From sequence record OR861627.1: a stretch of DNA of 49,337 bases; one strand, written 5' to 3'. A program made the translations under genes and the position numbers. Positions 2,332 through 47,139 of the stretch are shown piece by piece. Position 1 is the stretch's first letter. The number at the start of each line of letters is the position of its first letter. A model generated the notes under the pieces. The model saw only the letters and a program-made list of their open reading frames with translations, did not search any database and was not told the DNA's origin. The stretch is from Escherichia phage phiD2-2.

Positions 2332-3900
2332 TTAACCCATCAGCCGAGGATTAATGAAAACAATATCATCAATCCGGCAAGTGTAGTTCATCTCTTCGAG
2401 CGTGATAAGAAGACTATCGATTCGCTCAGATACTTTCTGTTGACCGTTGAAAGGCGTAACGTTCCGGCACTTTGCAACGATGCTATGAATAGGTGCGCGG
2501 CCTTTGTTTTTCTTCGCGATCTCAGTGATAACATCAATCAGCTTACGAGATTCAGCCTCATCACCAGCATACCCGGCAGCGCTGGCAGACGACAGATAAG
2601 TCCTGGAAAGCTCATTGAAGATCATGATTGCTTCCTGCATTGTTTCAAGGTCAATCTCACGGTTGGAACGGTTCGGTGATTCACCCTCCCAATTCTTGAT
2701 CGTGTGGAGAACTGAAGCAATACGCAAGGCGTGCTTATCGAACTTGCCGAGATGACCGCGTAGCATTGAGTGAGAGTATTTCCCACCTGCGGCGAAATCC
2801 GGTTCCATCGCCTGACGCGCAAGGTTTAATTCACGCATAGCATTACGGCTTACAGAGAGAACAACGTTTTCCTCCTTCATGATGTTGTGAACGAGTCTGT
2901 AATATTTGCTAACCAGTCCTCGATCGACTTCTTTATACAATGCATCACCATTTTCATCACAAAGAATACGAGTACCTAAAAGCGGTTCCTCGCGAACTAA
3001 CAGGAAGCGCTCAGATACACCGATACCTCGTTGGCCTGCGTCCATGATACCTTTGATTGTTTCATCCTGCGCAATTACGCAGATCGAGCCAACCGGGCAA
3101 AGAGACAAGTTGTTGTCCTGATTGGAGCGAGCGACCTCCATATGGTTTTTATCCCACGCCTTAAGAATAAGCTCACTGTTAGATTTCTTATCTGAACCTC
3201 CATACGTAAGACCGAGCAATGTATTGATTGCCGTTGCCTCATCAGAAATTACGGAAAAGTGGCCCTGAACAGCGGCTACTTTCGCAAGACCTTCAGGTGT
3301 AGGATCTGATACAGCAAAAACAATATCAGCCATCTTTTTGATCTTCTCTTCCAGTTTTTCTTTGTCCTCGTATAGTGCCGCAGTCGTGTTTCCTTTAGGA
3401 TCATTCTTGATTTCCTTCTCAACCTGGCGTAGCTGACTGGTTAAACGAATACGTTCCTTTTTGCGCTCTTCATTCAGTCGCTGAATCTCCGCACGCATAG
3501 GTGTAATCGCCGCTGAGTTAATCGCGGACTTACCTGTTGATGGTGGCTGGCTGATTACCATGTAAAGCGCGGTCGGCTGTTCCTCTCCGTGATATTGCAC
3601 CCAAAACTTCCCGAGCATCGCGGCTGAGATGCAACCTATAAAATGAGCATACGCGGATGAAACCGGGAACTGGACTGATTCAGCTTTTGCTTTTGCATAT
3701 TCGAATACCAGGTTATCGCCACCTAACGAAATCAGAGGGAACTTATCGTTGCCGCTATTGATATCGATCGGATCTTGCCAAAATGAAACTGAGTCACCAT
3801 AGCTGTTTTCACGAATTGCGATCGCCACCGGATTAACTCCAGTGCTATTGGCGATCTCAATAATCTGTTGGTAATTCAGTTTTGGCTTAATATTAAACAT
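2332..3900 (-). CDS. P-loop NTPase, DUF3987-like putative replication/helicase-associated protein
   Basis: Walker-A-like PPSTGKS, long coiled-coil insert, acidic VISDEAT Walker-B-like stretch; ATG (MFNIKPK) preceded by AAGGAG. Family assignment is from memory of the architecture. Confidence 0.45.
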   Translation of the reverse strand: MFNIKPKLNYQQIIEIANSTGVNPVAIAIRENSYGDSVSFWQDPIDINSGNDKFPLISLGGDNLVFEYAKAKAESVQFPVSSAYAHFIGCISAAMLGKFWVQYHGEEQPTALYMVISQPPSTGKSAINSAAITPMRAEIQRLNEERKKERIRLTSQLRQVEKEIKNDPKGNTTAALYEDKEKLEEKIKKMADIVFAVSDPTPEGLAKVAAVQGHFSVISDEATAINTLLGLTYGGSDKKSNSELILKAWDKNHMEVARSNQDNNLSLCPVGSICVIAQDETIKGIMDAGQRGIGVSERFLLVREEPLLGTRILCDENGDALYKEVDRGLVSKYYRLVHNIMKEENVVLSVSRNAMRELNLARQAMEPDFAAGGKYSHSMLRGHLGKFDKHALRIASVLHTIKNWEGESPNRSNREIDLETMQEAIMIFNELSRTYLSSASAAGYAGDEAESRKLIDVITEIAKKNKGRAPIHSIVAKCRNVTPFNGQQKVSERIDSLLITLEEMNYTCRIDDIVFINPRLMG

Positions 3901-3976: not shown

Positions 3977-4393
3977 TTATAAGTATTTGGCCTCAAAGGT
4001 TGTGCCGTCAGCTATGCTAAAACCGATCTCTTCGCGAAACAATGTCCAACGGCAACCATCCTCATCAAAAATATAACCAGCTACGCCGCCGAGAGCGCGA
4101 CCGCTTTCCACCTGGTAACGCTTGCCAAGTTTGAATGATTTTTTCATCGGATTACGATGGTCAAGCCCGGTGCACTTGAGCGTCTTTGTTTTCAACTCAG
4201 CGAACTTCGCGAAGAAGATTTCATCAGATCCGTGAATCTGTAATTCATCATGCTTTTCAAGTTTTAAATACTTTCCGCATTTTAATTTTACTTCGCGAGT
4301 GCCATCATAGCGCTCACGACCTTTGTACAGGTTGTTTACTTCAAATCCTGTGATTTTATCTGCGGAAGTACATTTAAGTTTGATGGATTTCAT
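3977..4393 (-). CDS. hypothetical protein (138 aa)
   Basis: Track ORF preceded by conserved leader CCAATCAGGAG and a boundary cassette. Confidence 0.6.
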   Translation of the reverse strand: MKSIKLKCTSADKITGFEVNNLYKGRERYDGTREVKLKCGKYLKLEKHDELQIHGSDEIFFAKFAELKTKTLKCTGLDHRNPMKKSFKLGKRYQVESGRALGGVAGYIFDEDGCRWTLFREEIGFSIADGTTFEAKYL

Positions 4394-8154: not shown

Positions 8155-8670
8155 ATGAGCAACACCAATCAGGAATTAAAAATCACCGATATGATTCGAC
8201 TAACCTGCGATGCAATGTATCGCGACAAAGGCATGAATGAGTTCTCTTTCGTGGCTGATGATATGGCCCTCGAGGCCGCGCGATTCTACTTCCGTGACCA
8301 GGAGGTAAGTGATAGCGATCTTGAATCTGCCGCTGCCGGATGGGTGGACCAGAACCAGGGTGAGGTGGAGAAGCGATTCAAGTCTGCTTTCATTACGCCA
8401 ATCATTACCCGGCACTTTTGCAAGTATGGCAAGGTGGCAAAGGTGAAGGTAGGCCGGAATGACGCTGCAATCACAATGATAACGGTTATCGTTACCGACG
8501 AAGAGATTCCCGTGAAGAAGCGCCGCAGCCGGAAAAAAGTTAGCCTGGCCGACTGCCTGGATTCGTTTGATGTTGATGTTGGCAAGCTATCGGATAGCGA
8601 GTTAATGGTTCGCGACGTGAATGAGATCGTACGCCAGATGAAAGCACATATCGAAAAGTGCGGGCTGTAA
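8155..8670 (+). CDS. hypothetical protein (171 aa), first rightward early gene
   Basis: Track ORF with AAGAGGG RBS; acidic patches. Confidence 0.6.
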   Translation: MSNTNQELKITDMIRLTCDAMYRDKGMNEFSFVADDMALEAARFYFRDQEVSDSDLESAAAGWVDQNQGEVEKRFKSAFITPIITRHFCKYGKVAKVKVGRNDAAITMITVIVTDEEIPVKKRRSRKKVSLADCLDSFDVDVGKLSDSELMVRDVNEIVRQMKAHIEKCGL

Positions 8671-8684
8671 CGCTGATAGGTGAA

Positions 8685-8760
8685 ATAGCACTTTTTGTTA
8701 AAGCCCGGTCGAGCGGATCGGGTATTATCTTCTCATTGACACGATACAGAGGAATCGAAG
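8685..8760 (+). promoter_or_regulatory. gene-boundary cassette
   Basis: ATAGCACTTTTTGTTAAAG, hairpin CCCGG..CGGG, TATTAT, CAGAGGAAT. Confidence 0.5.
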
Positions 8761-8957: not shown

Positions 8958-9428
8958 ATGGCGACAATTACCGTATTTCTTGCTAAAGATGAGCTTGATG
9001 GCGAAATGTCATTCTTCGCGTTTGAGCATAAAACCGGCTCGCACTGGCACACTTACAGCCATTACACGGTTATCTCAATTGAAGCGTACGACGGCGAACT
9101 GCTCACTGATAAACTGAGTAATTTCATTGAAGCCGTTAAAGCTAGCGGCGGCTGCGAGTGGAAGGAAGATCACGAAGTTATGCGAATGTTTGAGATGGTC
9201 AATCCGGTTCGCCTTGAGTCGTTCGAGCTTGATGCTAATGTGACTATCAAGGTGAGAAAGTCGGGTGAGTTATTGCCAGGGATGCGTGTACTGACTGGTT
9301 ACTCTGGCCGTAAGGTGTGGCGCACTGTATCCAAGATTCGCCAGCGCTCGGCAACATGCTATAGCGTATTCTTTGATGATGGTTGGAATATGATGTCCGG
9401 TAGTGAGGTAAAGTATCTCACCAAATAG
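8958..9428 (+). CDS. hypothetical protein (156 aa)
   Basis: Track ORF with GGAGG RBS; TAG stop lies inside the downstream palindrome. Confidence 0.6.
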   Translation: MATITVFLAKDELDGEMSFFAFEHKTGSHWHTYSHYTVISIEAYDGELLTDKLSNFIEAVKASGGCEWKEDHEVMRMFEMVNPVRLESFELDANVTIKVRKSGELLPGMRVLTGYSGRKVWRTVSKIRQRSATCYSVFFDDGWNMMSGSEVKYLTK

Positions 9429-9506
9429 CACGAATTGTTAAAACCTGATCGGGGTATCTTGCTATAGTTACCCCATCGAAACGAGATACCAATCAGAGGA
9501 ATAACC
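9425..9506 (+). promoter_or_regulatory. gene-boundary cassette (upstream stop TAG inside palindrome)
   Basis: ATAGCACGAATTGTTAAAAC, hairpin GGGGTA/TACCCC enclosing TGcTATAGT, CATCGAAACGAG, CCAATCAGAGGAAT. Confidence 0.6.
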
Positions 9507-10281: not shown

Positions 10282-10449
10282 TTGGCAGTATTCAAATGTA
10301 GTGATGACCAGGAAGTTAAAGAGTGCTTTACCGTTGACAAGCCTTATAACGCATCGCTAACCAGCTTCGGGAACATCTCATTGCTTGATGATAATGGCGA
10401 CCCCTGGATATTCGACGAAGACACCGATTGCTTCGAAATTAAAGAATAG
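10282..10449 (+). CDS. possible small acidic protein (about 55 aa), TTG start
   Basis: Hand-translated open frame ending at the TAG inside the 10447 palindrome; no convincing RBS. Confidence 0.25.
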   Translation: MAVFKCSDDQEVKECFTVDKPYNASLTSFGNISLLDDNGDPWIFDEDTDCFEIKE

Positions 10450-10520
10450 CACTTTTTGTTAAAAATAAATTCCGGGGTTGCGATATAGTAACCCCATCGA
10501 CAACGAACGAGGACGATAGC
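10447..10520 (+). promoter_or_regulatory. gene-boundary cassette
   Basis: TAGCACTTTTTGTTAAAAA, hairpin GGGGTT/AACCCC enclosing TATAGT, CATCGACAACGAACGAGG. Confidence 0.55.
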
Positions 10521-11587: not shown

Positions 11588-11736
11588 TGGCTGCGTGGGT
11601 CTTGATTATCTTGATGAGTACCGGTCCGGATCACGTATACATGGAAAGTCAGCAATCATGCAACAAGGCTCGGGAGGTGATTTCAGAGAACAAGCCGTTC
11701 GGATACGAAGTAAAAACGATGTGCGTTAAACGATAG
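11587..11736 (+). CDS. small membrane protein (about 49 aa)
   Basis: Hand-translated; ATG overlaps upstream TAA; hydrophobic N-terminus (AAWVLIILMSTG); TAG stop inside the 11733 palindrome. Confidence 0.35.
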   Translation: MAAWVLIILMSTGPDHVYMESQQSCNKAREVISENKPFGYEVKTMCVKR

Positions 11737-11816
11737 CACGAATTGCTAAACCTTCCGCAAGGCCATTTGATATAGTGGCCTTATTGAAGCAGAGCGACCA
11801 ATCAGAGGAATCGGCT
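11733..11816 (+). promoter_or_regulatory. gene-boundary cassette
   Basis: ATAGCACGAATTGCTAAAC, hairpin AAGGCCA/TGGCCTT enclosing TGaTATAGT, CCAATCAGAGGAAT. Confidence 0.6.
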
Positions 11817-12116
11817 ATGAAAATCAGATTAACCAGTAGCTACTTTAACCGTGAATCTTTCAATCAGTACATAATCACAGACGGAATGAATACAGGCATC
11901 GTCCTTGATGTATCCCACAACATTGGCGACGTTATGTTTGTATCAGCAACTGAGCTTGCAAAGTACGCAAAGCCAGAACATCGCCACCTGGCAGAGCCGC
12001 ACTTGAGCGATGGAAAGGTTACAGATTACGCATTCACCAAAGGTGAGTATGAAATCGTGAGATCTGGACCTTTCAGATTCTGGAACAAACTTAAATCAGG
12101 GGAGTTATTCAAATGA
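11817..12116 (+). CDS. hypothetical protein (about 99 aa)
   Basis: Track ORF 11775..12116 trimmed to ATG (MKIRLTSSYF) after CCAATCAGAGGAAT leader. Confidence 0.55.
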   Translation: MKIRLTSSYFNRESFNQYIITDGMNTGIVLDVSHNIGDVMFVSATELAKYAKPEHRHLAEPHLSDGKVTDYAFTKGEYEIVRSGPFRFWNKLKSGELFK

Positions 12117-12400
12117 GCAAAACTCATAAGTTAAAAATCGCCCCTGTACATTTCATTGGTGTAATGAACGGAACCAAAACGGCAGAGTTCCGCATCAATG
12201 ACCGAAACTTCCAATCTGGCGATATCCTGGAGCTATGCGAGTTCGATCGAGATGAGTTTACCGGGTGGGAAGTTCACGCCAGGGTATCCGATGTTACCGA
12301 TGTGACGCCATACATCAATCGCGGGTATGACGAGCAAGAATGCGACTTCACGCAATACGTGATGTTATCAATCAAGCCTTACAGGAAGGTTAGACCATGA
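12113..12400 (+). CDS. ASCH/PUA-like domain protein (95 aa)
   Basis: G-x-K-x-x-E-x-R followed by GD (NGTKTAEFRINDRNFQSGDILEL) matches the ASCH signature as I recall it. Confidence 0.5.
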   Translation: MSKTHKLKIAPVHFIGVMNGTKTAEFRINDRNFQSGDILELCEFDRDEFTGWEVHARVSDVTDVTPYINRGYDEQECDFTQYVMLSIKPYRKVRP

Positions 12401-13035
12401 AATTTGAATGTGTGCTTAGTAACGGATCTGGATTTAAGTACGGCAAAATCTACGAAGGCGCTCGCGTCAATTGCAACAGCTTCGTTATCACGGATGAGCG
12501 CGGTAGAAATGTTAACGTTGTCCGGCGTCACGAATACCAGGAAATTTTCCTGCCGTACGGCAATAGTTCAAAATACATCTTCCATCGAATCGTTGATGGT
12601 GTTAAATTTAAAGACGTAATCGAAGCAATCAACCAACTTCATAATAAAGAGGTAAAATTTATGAAATTCGAATGTATCAGCGATAACACCAAAAAATTTA
12701 CTGTTGGCAAAATTTACGATGTTCCCTCTGAGCACGCTAAGCACACGGCTGTAATTACCGACGACACGGGCCGCCACCGCATTGCAACCGTAACGCACAA
12801 CGGTGAAGGTCTTCGCTGGAATAGCGGCGGCACTAAGTTCGCAACGTTCGGCAAGAAGCGCAAGCGCACTTTCTGCGTCAAGGGCAATGTTGCGGCGAAC
12901 AAGACCCACAACGACAAGGCGTCACAAGTTGACCGCAAGCCAGCATTGAAGTTTGAAGAGAAAGCGGATTTATCCGGCCTGGCTGTTGCGCTTGTTCTCC
13001 TGGTAGCTTCGATTTCGCTGATGTTCATCATGTAA
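12397..13035 (+). CDS. membrane-anchored protein with tandem duplicated domain (212 aa)
   Basis: Two copies of an MKFEC...GKIY...ITD..GR module starting at residues 1 and 89; C-terminal TM helix LAVALVLLVASISLMFIM; internal ATG at about 12661 has its own AAAGAGG RBS. Confidence 0.6.
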   Translation: MKFECVLSNGSGFKYGKIYEGARVNCNSFVITDERGRNVNVVRRHEYQEIFLPYGNSSKYIFHRIVDGVKFKDVIEAINQLHNKEVKFMKFECISDNTKKFTVGKIYDVPSEHAKHTAVITDDTGRHRIATVTHNGEGLRWNSGGTKFATFGKKRKRTFCVKGNVAANKTHNDKASQVDRKPALKFEEKADLSGLAVALVLLVASISLMFIM

Positions 13036-13040
13036 TTTTA

Positions 13041-13076
13041 ACGGGGAATCGGATCTGAACGGTTCCCCTTTCTTTT
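13041..13076 (+). terminator. rho-independent terminator
   Basis: Stem GGGGAA/TTCCCC then TTTCTTTT. Confidence 0.6.
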
Positions 13077-13199: not shown

Positions 13200-13402
13200 C
13201 CGCAGAAGATGCGGCGCGTGACGCAGTGGAAGGAATGCGCCCAAATACCTCCAGAATCGCCCACTACTACAAGTTTGAGGTGTCGGCAGTGCAATTGGTC
13301 CACGAAATTTTAAGGCTCCCACAAGTCGATTCAGCGCGAGTAGTGACGTGCTTAAAAAATTATTTTTGCATCACTATTAAAACGAATAGCACGAATTGCT
13401 AA
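13184..13402 (+). CDS. hypothetical protein (72 aa)
   Basis: Track ORF; stop is the TAA inside the 13386 palindrome. Confidence 0.45.
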   Translation: MATIITAEDAARDAVEGMRPNTSRIAHYYKFEVSAVQLVHEILRLPQVDSARVVTCLKNYFCITIKTNSTNC

Positions 13403-13469
13403 AACTTGCTCAAGGGTATTTGATAGAATGCCCTTCGTTGAGTTAAGCAACCAATCAGAGGAATAAATC
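13386..13469 (+). promoter_or_regulatory. gene-boundary cassette
   Basis: ATAGCACGAATTGCTAAAAC, hairpin AGGGTA/TGCCCT enclosing TGaTAGAAT, CCAATCAGAGGAAT. Confidence 0.6.
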
Positions 13470-14081
13470 ATGGATAAAATTACCATTTGGGGCCAGACTG
13501 TCAACCTGTTTCTAGGTACTCGCCGTGTGGCAATCTTTGACTTCGACGGAACGCTGAGTGACGGCTCAAAACGTCTTCACCTGCTACCGACAAAAGATTT
13601 GCACTTGACTGAAAGCTGGTCTGAGTTTAACCGCGCGGCAATATTTGATAACCCAATCCAAAGCACGATCGACGTAATGAACTCCATGTATGCCGCTGGT
13701 TATCATGTGATAATTTTAACCGGGAGAAGCGATGAGGTGCGTTACGCATCTGAGTTATGGCTTAAGCATCACGGCGCAAGATATGATTACTTAGTCATGA
13801 GGCCGCATACCGACAACCGCAAAGACACGGTAATGAAAGAAGAGGCGGTGCGCGCGATCGGCGTTGATAACATTCTGGCAGCTTGGGATGACTCACCGCA
13901 AATTATTCCATTATTCCGATCGCTTGGAATAACCACGTATGCCGTAGTTGACTATGGCGATAACGTTCACGATCATTTAAAATCTCACGGGGTGGATGAG
14001 GTTTGCAATCATGAACCATCTGAGCCGCTACCGCCATTTGGCGATAAAATATGCATTAAGTGCAAGGAGTTATTGAAGTGA
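13470..14081 (+). CDS. HAD-superfamily phosphatase, resembles the 3'-phosphatase domain of T4 polynucleotide kinase/phosphatase
   Basis: Motif I FDFDGTL, motif II-like ILTGRS, downstream NRKDTVMKEE and AWDDSPQII...VVDYGD; resemblance to T4 Pnkp C-domain is from memory. Confidence 0.6.
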   Translation: MDKITIWGQTVNLFLGTRRVAIFDFDGTLSDGSKRLHLLPTKDLHLTESWSEFNRAAIFDNPIQSTIDVMNSMYAAGYHVIILTGRSDEVRYASELWLKHHGARYDYLVMRPHTDNRKDTVMKEEAVRAIGVDNILAAWDDSPQIIPLFRSLGITTYAVVDYGDNVHDHLKSHGVDEVCNHEPSEPLPPFGDKICIKCKELLK

Positions 14082-14191
14082 ACCTGTACGAATTTATTGC
14101 AGCACATCCTGTATTGACGGTTATCATCCTGTTAATCATCAATCACACTATCATCAATGTGGCAAAATTATTTTTAGGGAGATACTAACAT
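14078..14191 (+). CDS. possible small membrane peptide (about 37 aa)
   Basis: Hand-translated GTG-start ORF between phosphatase and kinase (VNLYEFIAAHPVLTVIILLIINHTIINVAKLFLGRY). Confidence 0.25.
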
Positions 14192-14762
14192 GAAAACAGC
14201 TATCATTTTAAACGGCGCACCTGGAGCGGGAAAAGACACTATCGGATGCATCCTTGCTGACACTTACGATCACGTAGCCTTGCGCAGCTTCAAAGCGCCA
14301 ATGTTTGAGATTGCCAGGGCAATCCTGGGTGAAGCTAACTACGAGTATTTCATGTTCTTGTATGAGGACCGTCGATATAAAGAAGAGCCAGCATCAATCC
14401 TGAACGGTAAAAGCCCGCGCCAGTTTATGATCTGGATTAGCGAGGAAGTCATCAAGCCGCAGTTCGGAAATCGCTTCTTCGGTATGCGAGCGGAAAGCAA
14501 GGTGAAAGAGTCGCACTCCCTTTCGGTATTTACTGATGGTGGATTCAAAGACGAAATCTTGCAGATGATTGAAGGTGATATCCAGGTCAAGCTATGTCGA
14601 ATACATCGCAACGGTTGCAGCTTTGATAACGACAGCCGCGACTATATCTATCTTGACGACATGATCGGGGTTAACGGTTATCAGGAATGTGACTTCTTTT
14701 CTGTCGAAGGTCATCCAGAAATTACCGCTCAGCACATAGCCGCCACGTTCATCAATAAATAG
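14190..14762 (+). CDS. deoxynucleoside monophosphate kinase-like P-loop kinase (T4 gp1-like)
   Basis: P-loop GAPGAGKDT, FKAPMFEIARAILG and LNGKSP motifs resemble T4 gene 1 dNMP kinase from memory; GGGAGA RBS. Confidence 0.55.
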   Translation: MKTAIILNGAPGAGKDTIGCILADTYDHVALRSFKAPMFEIARAILGEANYEYFMFLYEDRRYKEEPASILNGKSPRQFMIWISEEVIKPQFGNRFFGMRAESKVKESHSLSVFTDGGFKDEILQMIEGDIQVKLCRIHRNGCSFDNDSRDYIYLDDMIGVNGYQECDFFSVEGHPEITAQHIAATFINK

Positions 14763-14834
14763 CACGAATTGCTAAAACGTCGATGGGGTGATTTGATATA
14801 GTTACCTCATCGACAACGAAGAGAGAAAATCTAA
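14760..14834 (+). promoter_or_regulatory. gene-boundary cassette
   Basis: TAGCACGAATTGCTAAAAC, hairpin enclosing TGaTATAGT, CATCGACAACGAAGAGAG. Confidence 0.6.
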
Positions 14835-16571: not shown

Positions 16572-16622
16572 GCCTGCAATATGGTAAAATAGCACTAAAT
16601 GTTAAACAAAGAGGATGGATTT
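16572..16622 (+). promoter_or_regulatory. extended -10 (TGgTAAAAT) plus palindrome in the TerS leader
   Basis: After terminator: TGGTAAAAT then TAGCACTAAATGTTAAAC then AAGAGGA RBS. Confidence 0.45.
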
Positions 16623-46425: not shown

Positions 46426-47139
46426 ATGAAAGACTTTAATGATATCGAAACTATCGACTTTGCAGAAACTGGTTGCTCATTCACTCGCGAAGCAATAGCA
46501 TCAGGCGGTTATTATCAGGCATTGAAAACGCCAACCTGCAAAGAGATTTCAGGGCGTCGATACAAGGGGACAAATACCCCTGACGCTGTTCGTGATTTAT
46601 GGTCAACCCCGCGCGAGGTTATCGCATACCTTGAGGGTCGTTACGGAAAATATGATCTAGACGCTGCGGCAAGCGAAGAAAATAAAGTTTGCGAGAAGTT
46701 TTATTCCCAGGAAACAAACTGCTTAAAACGTTGGTGGGGTAAAAATAAGCACGTATGGTTAAATCCTCCTTATAGTCGACCTGATATATTCGTCAAGAAG
46801 GCGATCGAGCAAATGGAGCACAACAATCAGATTGATATTCTGTTGCCTGCCGATAATTCCACAGCGTGGTTTACTGAGGCGAGACAGAACGCGGCTGAGA
46901 TTATCTGGATTGAAGCTGACTTGACTGAAGATATCGACGGTAACGAGTACGCCAGATCTGGTCGCCTGGCTTTCATATCCGGTGAAACTGGAAAGGCGGT
47001 TGACGGCAATAACAAGGGTTCGGTAATTTTCATAATGCGCGAACTTAAAGAGGGTGAGACACAGCAAACTCACTATATCCCAATCACAAGCATTTGCCCT
47101 TCGGTGAAAAACAAGCGCGCAAAAGTGAGGAAAGTATGA
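46426..47139 (+). CDS. dam: DNA N6-adenine methyltransferase (phage Dam family)
   Basis: WSTP, DLDAAAS and NPPYS motifs; own boundary cassette upstream. Confidence 0.75.
   Translation: MKDFNDIETIDFAETGCSFTREAIASGGYYQALKTPTCKEISGRRYKGTNTPDAVRDLWSTPREVIAYLEGRYGKYDLDAAASEENKVCEKFYSQETNCLKRWWGKNKHVWLNPPYSRPDIFVKKAIEQMEHNNQIDILLPADNSTAWFTEARQNAAEIIWIEADLTEDIDGNEYARSGRLAFISGETGKAVDGNNKGSVIFIMRELKEGETQQTHYIPITSICPSVKNKRAKVRKV

Follow-up and report, generated by a model that had tools for sequence, protein, structure and literature searches.

The ASCH (PUA-like) fold is understood here as defined in PMC7641849. ASCH proteins with a Glu-type octapeptide (TthASCH, EOLA1, TRIP4, and others) are reported in a 2026 preprint to deacetylate tRNA ac4C and to have an essential Lys/Glu dyad (10.64898/2026.02.27.708502); 19 proteins were assayed in that work, the DUF3850 family not among them, and two of the Glu type, ZmASCH and the ASCH domain of TRIP4, did not hydrolyze free ac4C (10.64898/2026.02.27.708502). 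In Escherichia coli YqfB, residues K21, T24, and R26 act together with E74 in the hydrolysis of N4-acetylcytidine. For the phage-associated family DUF3850, fusions to ParB-CTPase that are enriched in prophages have been described (PMC12704722); our literature searches on DUF3850, on P2 orf91, and on ASCH with anti-defence found no functional data.

The gene described here lies at 12113-12400 in a stretch of 49,337 bases, the whole of which is called the window. Its product is almost certainly a stand-alone DUF3850 protein with a minimal ASCH fold (a PUA-like beta-barrel). The features of the locus are collected in Table 1.

Table 1 Features of the DUF3850 locus. Positions are those of the window; residue numbers are those of the DUF3850 protein.
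Feature	Position	Strand	Basis and remarks
DUF3850/ASCH-fold CDS, 95 aa	12113..12400	+	ATG-to-TGA ORF; Pfam and PHROG profiles, AlphaFold2 and Foldseek, dN/dS
Shine-Dalgarno-like GGGGAG	12099..12104	+	8 nt 5' of the ATG; read from the sequence
Codons for G20-T-K22-T-A-E25-F-R27 (GxKxxExR octapeptide)	12170..12193	+	Family alignments; K22, E25, and R27 invariant
Codons for family-specific N29-D30-R31, then G36-D37	12197..12223	+	Family alignments; D30, R31, and D37 invariant
Ten-residue insertion, residues 71-80, GYDEQECDFT	12323..12352	+	Exclusive to the T1-like clade
gp11, 5' neighbor	11775..12116	+	113 aa with a GTG start at 11775, or 99 aa with an ATG start at 11817
gp13, 3' neighbor, 212 aa	12397..13035	+	MKFEC... 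repeat present twice; hydrophobic tail at the C-terminus
Insertion of about 0.86 kb relative to T1	11792..12648	+	blastn against NC_005833; holds gp11, the DUF3850 gene, and the first gp13 repeat
Repeat element ATAGCACGAATTGCTAAA...TGATATAGT...ACCAATCAGAGGAAT, copy before gp11	11726..11811	+	Repeat families D1-D5
Intrinsic-terminator-like hairpin and T-run	13043..13076 (hairpin 13043-13068)	+	Directly 3' of gp13

The DUF3850 protein, its family, and its fold

The gene is 100% identical to the gp12 CDS of Escherichia phage FCWL1 (PP558327.1, 3883-4170), and its translation begins MSKTHKLKIAPVHFIGVMNGTKTAEFRINDRNFQSGDILELCEF. A sequence-only reading of this stretch had proposed a small ASCH-like protein here from the signature G-x-K-x-x-E-x-R followed by GD. 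Both the 95-aa reading frame and the signature are present, and the octapeptide satisfies the ASCH pattern GxKxx[E/T/S]xR.

The strongest Pfam match is DUF3850 (PF12961), with E 3.5e-16 and 59.6 bits where the cutoff is 22.9; it spans positions 1-72 of the 77-position profile. ASCH itself (PF04266) scores 17.3 bits, under its gathering cutoff of 21.2, and is matched at E <= 0.001 by 32 of 47 longer family members; DUF3850 is therefore regarded as a sister family in the same clan and not as a member of PF04266. These two were the only Pfam families at E <= 1, with no match to PUA, EVE, YTH, or SRA. The best PHROG match is PHROG 986 ('RNA-binding protein'; E 2.4e-37), whose profile has 253 positions; the 95-aa protein matches positions 94-177 only, so members can exceed the length of the domain. 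NCBIfam gave no match for the DUF3850 protein or its two neighbors. By sequence, the sole solved relative is PDB 3IUW, from Enterococcus faecalis V583 (NP_814290.1) and deposited as 'activating signal cointegrator'; it was found at E 9e-7 with the single sequence and at 8.6e-26 with a 72-sequence family profile. HMMER, run exhaustively over 1.84 billion representative proteins, returned 2420 relatives at E <= 0.001; a word-indexed homolog search gave close T1-like orthologs only, and the diversity of the family used here comes from the exhaustive scan and the profile search.

AlphaFold2 run on the single sequence gave a pLDDT of 52, which was unusable; a 70-sequence alignment was used instead and gave a model with pLDDT 91.2 and pTM 0.79. 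The model consists of a strand, a helix, and four further strands (strands 4-9, 24-28, 38-45, 48-63, and 82-93; helix 11-19), in agreement with the fold of the ASCH superfamily (PUA-like clan). Residues 71-80 have a mean pLDDT of 63 and form a low-confidence loop; these columns are filled in just 6-10% of the 70 aligned family members, and variants of 91 aa with a shorter loop exist. In a Foldseek search against the PDB, 3IUW ranked first (E 6.9e-8; TM 0.74 normalized to the query, 0.88 to the target), and ranks 3-18 were ASCH-domain structures without exception; PH0355, YqfB (including its ac4C complex), ZmASCH, PF0470, PF0455, and TTHA0113 followed 3IUW, with the ASCH domain of TRIP4 lower down. 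A search of a viral structure library returned phage DUF3850 and ASCH proteins. The ASCH fold proposed from the letters alone is thus borne out twice, by the HMM search (strong for DUF3850, weak and sub-cutoff for ASCH) and by a confident structure prediction that matches 3IUW and, after it, ASCH-domain structures only; a lack of any ASCH or PUA profile or fold match, named beforehand as the result that would speak against the proposal, did not arise.

FCWL1 gp12 is labeled 'RNA-binding protein' in GenBank, as is the ortholog of phage SH2 in RefSeq; other records label family members 'DUF3850 domain-containing protein'. Public databases already contain the gene, its family, and a structure from that family, so that the finding is a known one. 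The annotation is correct but ordinary, and nothing in the evidence marks the gene as surprising.

An accessory gene in a three-gene unit, and its surroundings

The region is 99.9% identical to FCWL1 (PP558327.1, 49,336 bp; Tunavirus, Drexlerviridae), rotated; the window is apparently the complete genome, circularly permuted relative to that record, position 1 of which corresponds to about position 8231 of the window. The TGA of gp11 and the start codon of the DUF3850 gene overlap as ATGA at 12113-12116, and the stop of the DUF3850 gene overlaps the ATG of gp13 in the same manner (ATGA at 12397-12400); with such overlaps on both sides, the three genes look translationally coupled. gp11 matches PHROG 24939, a PHROG without assigned function. 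gp13 is built from two tandem copies of an MKFEC... domain of about 88 aa (E 7e-8 between the halves), behind which come a basic linker and the C-terminal hydrophobic tail LSGLAVALVLLVASISLMFIM; it has no Pfam, PADLOC, or NCBIfam match, and its ortholog in SH2 is longer (267 aa).

Phage T1 is without the DUF3850 gene (comparison with NC_005833). Alignment with T1 stops at T1 position 3593 on one side of the insertion and resumes at 3607 on the other, with nothing aligning between the two flanks (blastn, NC_005833), and ST68 of T1 consists of the second gp13 repeat and the hydrophobic tail only. The DUF3850 gene is accordingly accessory, carried by some T1-like phages only. On the left, the insertion has its edge inside the repeat copy that precedes gp11. 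At least seven copies of this intergenic element are found in the window (8679-8702, 9418-9502, 10439-10500, 11726-11811, 13386-13464, 14752-14813, and 16583-16606), where it precedes successive clusters of small genes upstream of the terminase genes; it resembles an extended -10 promoter with a ribosome-binding site and may, judged by its letters, act as a promoter. Because the insertion begins within one of the copies, the arrangement suggests an exchange of cassettes through recombination at the repeats. At the position that corresponds to the hairpin behind gp13, T1 has an annotated rho-independent terminator, right behind ST68. Bounded by the promoter-like element and the terminator-like hairpin, the DUF3850 gene lies in a three-gene unit of its own, apart from the HAD phosphatase gene at 13470.

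Between this gene and its ortholog in SH2 there are 18 nucleotide and 3 amino acid differences, with dN/dS = 0.04; the gene is maintained and functional, under strong purifying selection. An ortholog of at least 80% identity is found in about 59 phage records. The N-terminal gp13 repeat occurs in 61 records, always beside a DUF3850 gene where annotation is shown, and gp11 in 10 only; as the carrier phages are closely related, the linkage of gp13 to the DUF3850 gene is weak evidence for a functional tie.

Downstream lie two genes that had been taken, in the sequence-only reading, as a hint of a role in nucleic-acid modification sensing. One (13470-14081, plus strand, 203 aa) is annotated 'polynucleotide kinase' and has a HAD_PNKP phosphatase domain only, with no kinase domain; the other (14190-14762, plus strand, 190 aa) encodes a P-loop protein with a match to a dNMP-kinase PHROG and no informative PDB sequence match. 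The pair could be a split PNKP, or its annotation could merely be misleading. In T1 the HNH endonuclease gene ST63 lies between the HAD phosphatase and the P-loop genes. The proposed tie to nucleotide metabolism is not supported by the context: T1 keeps the phosphatase and the kinase-like gene without the DUF3850 gene; the hairpin at 13043-13068 and the promoter-like element at 13386 separate the DUF3850 unit from the phosphatase gene; and elsewhere the family occurs in unrelated places (behind P2 gene A, between Kayfunavirus tail tubular genes, upstream of the terminase of prophages). A functional module with the two downstream genes was therefore rejected, and proximity is no evidence for a common pathway.

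In P2-like phages the homolog is orf91, directly 3' of replication gene A. In prophages of Enterococcus, Clostridium, and Cronobacter, homologs stand among small genes that run from the replication/recombination module to the terminase; further homologs are found on a freshwater viral contig and, in an ordinary cellular neighborhood, in the genome of an archaeon (Methanomassiliicoccaceae). The prophages of these three genera, the contig, and the archaeon, five unrelated contexts, hold no conserved partner gene, and the one recurrent feature among them is a position between replication genes and terminase. Escherichia phage PH1061 (Kayfunavirus) has a 75-aa DUF3850 gene (3995-4222) between two 'tail protein' genes of a T7-like phage, a late-gene position unlike that in T1-like phages and prophages. 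Fusions of DUF3850 to DUF551, DUF7415, and HTH domains also occur. Two metagenomic proteins (195-197 aa) combine DUF3850 with a C-terminal segment like the post-GGQ part of RF-1 (VTHIPTGI...). As fusions to an RF-1 peptidyl-tRNA hydrolase these were rejected (31.6 and 32.5 bits, with the Pfam cutoff at 35; no GGQ), and for the same reasons no link to the ribosome is argued from them.

Conserved residues and candidate functions

The alignment of 70 diverse members has nine invariant columns (H5, K8, K22, E25, R27, D30, R31, D37, and L41), and nine more are at least 90% conserved, N29, G36, E43, T50, G51, and Y82 among them. All invariant residues are intact in the protein studied here, in the pattern HxLK...GxKxxExRxNDR...GD; given the ASCH topology, we infer that they cluster around one pocket. 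The ortholog of Shigella phage vB_SflS-ISF001 reads G-T-I-T-A-E-F-R, with Ile replacing Lys22, and has 79% identity with many other substitutions; it may be a decaying copy or the product of a sequencing error.

The protein has a pI of 5.9 and a net charge of -2; the family has a median pI of 6.5, and 61% of its members are acidic. This mild acidity disfavors generic electrostatic binding of RNA and favors a specific pocket or active site, so that a specific nucleobase pocket is, on balance, the more probable arrangement. Position 13, nine residues ahead of Lys22, is Tyr in 84% of members and His in this protein; the offset equals that from Tyr14 to Lys23 in TthASCH. The Lys/Glu dyad of the Glu-type ASCH deacetylases is present as K22 and E25, both invariant in DUF3850.

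On the strength of the invariant charged set, the acidity, the dyad, and the aromatic residue at position 13, a nucleobase pocket with deacylase-type activity is ranked first. By analogy with these relatives, the best explanation, which we offer tentatively, would be a nucleobase-pocket protein with hydrolase or reader action on a modified (N-acylated) base; that the action is hydrolytic and of deacylase type is possible and is proposed with a little more reserve. The pocket would be made of Lys22, Glu25, and Arg27 of the octapeptide with the family-invariant His5, Lys8, Asp30, Arg31, and Asp37, and would accommodate one nucleobase or nucleoside, probably a modified one, that is either free or flipped out from an RNA. 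An exocyclic N-acyl group would most likely be hydrolyzed, as in the removal of N4-acetyl from cytidine by Glu-type ('GKER') ASCH proteins, and during infection the phage could gain from this by editing or clearing a modification of host RNA or nucleotides. Against this explanation count the sub-cutoff ASCH score, Glu in place of Thr24 of YqfB, the want of a counterpart to Glu74 of YqfB, the failure of ZmASCH and the TRIP4 ASCH domain to hydrolyze free ac4C, the lack of a conserved gene neighbor indicative of a substrate, and the exchange of Lys22 for Ile in the ISF001 ortholog.

In a more particular form, the protein could be an eraser or sponge that removes an N-acyl mark, either from host tRNA (e.g., ac4C34 in the elongator tRNA-Met of E. 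coli) or from a base that a GNAT-type toxin has acylated, or that binds or destroys a modified-mononucleotide alarm; we consider this distinctly unlikely. If it were true, translation would be tuned or a defence system disarmed, and it would be the first function for DUF3850, with its thousands of phage members, and the first viral RNA-modification eraser of such a type.

A purely non-catalytic reader is the strongest of the alternatives and is judged somewhat unlikely. Such a protein would bind RNA, or DNA with a modified base (e.g., Dam-type N6-methyladenine), and so regulate or shield nucleic acid. Reading of modified bases is widely predicted or shown for domains of the PUA/ASCH clan, and a role as m6A reader has been put forward for ASCH (PMC4738411, PMC7641849); the ASCH domain of TRIP4 has been crystallized with dsDNA (PDB 8YFJ, 9KYL), and phage DUF3850 domains are fused to ParB-CTPase and HTH domains. 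The phage also encodes a Dam methyltransferase (46426-47139), but Dam is present in T1 without the DUF3850 gene, hence there is no coupling between the two. The database label 'RNA-binding protein' implies a reader as well; it derives from the name of the PHROG, however, and not from experiment. Like most of its family, the protein is acidic to neutral, and the invariant Lys/Glu/Arg together with Asp/Arg/Asp/His resembles an active site more closely than it does the usually aromatic cage of a reader.

An unlikely alternative is a counter-defence factor that sequesters or destroys a nucleotide alarm signal, or that reverses the acylation of a base or of aminoacyl-tRNA by a host GNAT-type toxin. 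The gene is accessory, has a patchy distribution, and is located in variable parts of phage genomes that are not related; one E. coli defence system detects the mononucleotide m6-dAMP through a domain of the PUA/ASCH clan (10.64898/2026.01.15.699771), and GNAT-EVE toxin-like operons are accompanied by ASCH proteins (PMC7641849). Neither the DUF3850 protein nor either neighbor matches a PADLOC model at E <= 0.1, however; the gene has no defence-related neighbor, no published anti-defence result for DUF3850 was found, and the archaeal copy has an ordinary cellular context.

Activity as a small single-strand-specific ribonuclease like ZmASCH of Zymomonas is highly improbable. ZmASCH does appear in the fold search (Foldseek E 3.6e-4 to 5e-3; query-normalized TM 0.61-0.65) and has the Glu-type octapeptide too, but with its 140-150 or so residues it is covered to about 44% only, and the target-normalized TM of 0.42-0.45 leaves the barrel alone in common; the deposited point mutants of ZmASCH include S128A, beyond the end of the 95-aa protein, and no metal-binding motif is evident. 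That the ORF is without function, a chance frame or a pseudogene in decay, as the loss of Lys22 in the ISF001 ortholog and the ability of T1 to manage without the gene might suggest, is effectively refuted by HMM E-values of 1e-16 to 1e-37, the dN/dS of 0.04, the ribosome-binding site, the start/stop overlaps with both neighbors, and the full set of invariant residues.

With 2420 representative clusters at E <= 0.001, DUF3850 is a common phage family, and the wider value of the locus is as a convenient test case: the natural contrast of phages with the gene (SH2, FCWL1) and without it (T1), together with the new ASCH deacetylase assays, makes it a cheap one for the family.

Comparison with described ASCH proteins

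The nearest relative is the DUF3850 family itself, with 3IUW as its structure: the HMM match is full-length, the fold (TM 0.88 by the target) and all invariant residues are common to both, and the gene is typically one of phages or prophages; this protein differs by the ten-residue loop at 71-80, found in the T1-like clade only. ParB-CTPase-DUF3850 prophage fusions (PNAS 2025, PMC12704722) have the DUF3850 domain in common with it, whereas here the domain is bare, with neither a ParB fold nor a parA neighbor.

TTHA0113/TthASCH (PDB 2DP9), EOLA1, and the ASCH domain of TRIP4 have the beta-barrel and the GxKxxExR octapeptide with its Lys/Glu dyad in common with the phage protein, which is much smaller than these Glu-type proteins (95 aa against about 120-150), is without their extra helices, and has H5, K8, D30, R31, and D37 as additional invariant residues specific to DUF3850. 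ZmASCH (PDB 5GUQ), an ssRNA-specific ribonuclease of Zymomonas mobilis, likewise has an ASCH barrel with a Glu-type octapeptide and is about 50 residues longer, at 14% identity and the query-normalized TM given above (0.61-0.65).

E. coli YqfB, the N4-acetylcytidine amidohydrolase (PDB 1TE7, 9KYF, 9KYH), is also a small single-domain ASCH protein, with a fold match at E 2.3e-4 and a profile match at just E 0.4. Its K21, T24, and R26 align in the profile alignment to K22, E25, and R27, so that Thr24 of YqfB is Glu25 here; Glu74, its general acid, lies on a helical segment for which the 95-aa protein has no room. By the alignment and the AlphaFold2 model, the combined marks of the YqfB subtype (octapeptide Thr together with Lys21 and Glu74) do not characterize the phage protein, whose octapeptide is that of the Glu-type ASCH proteins.
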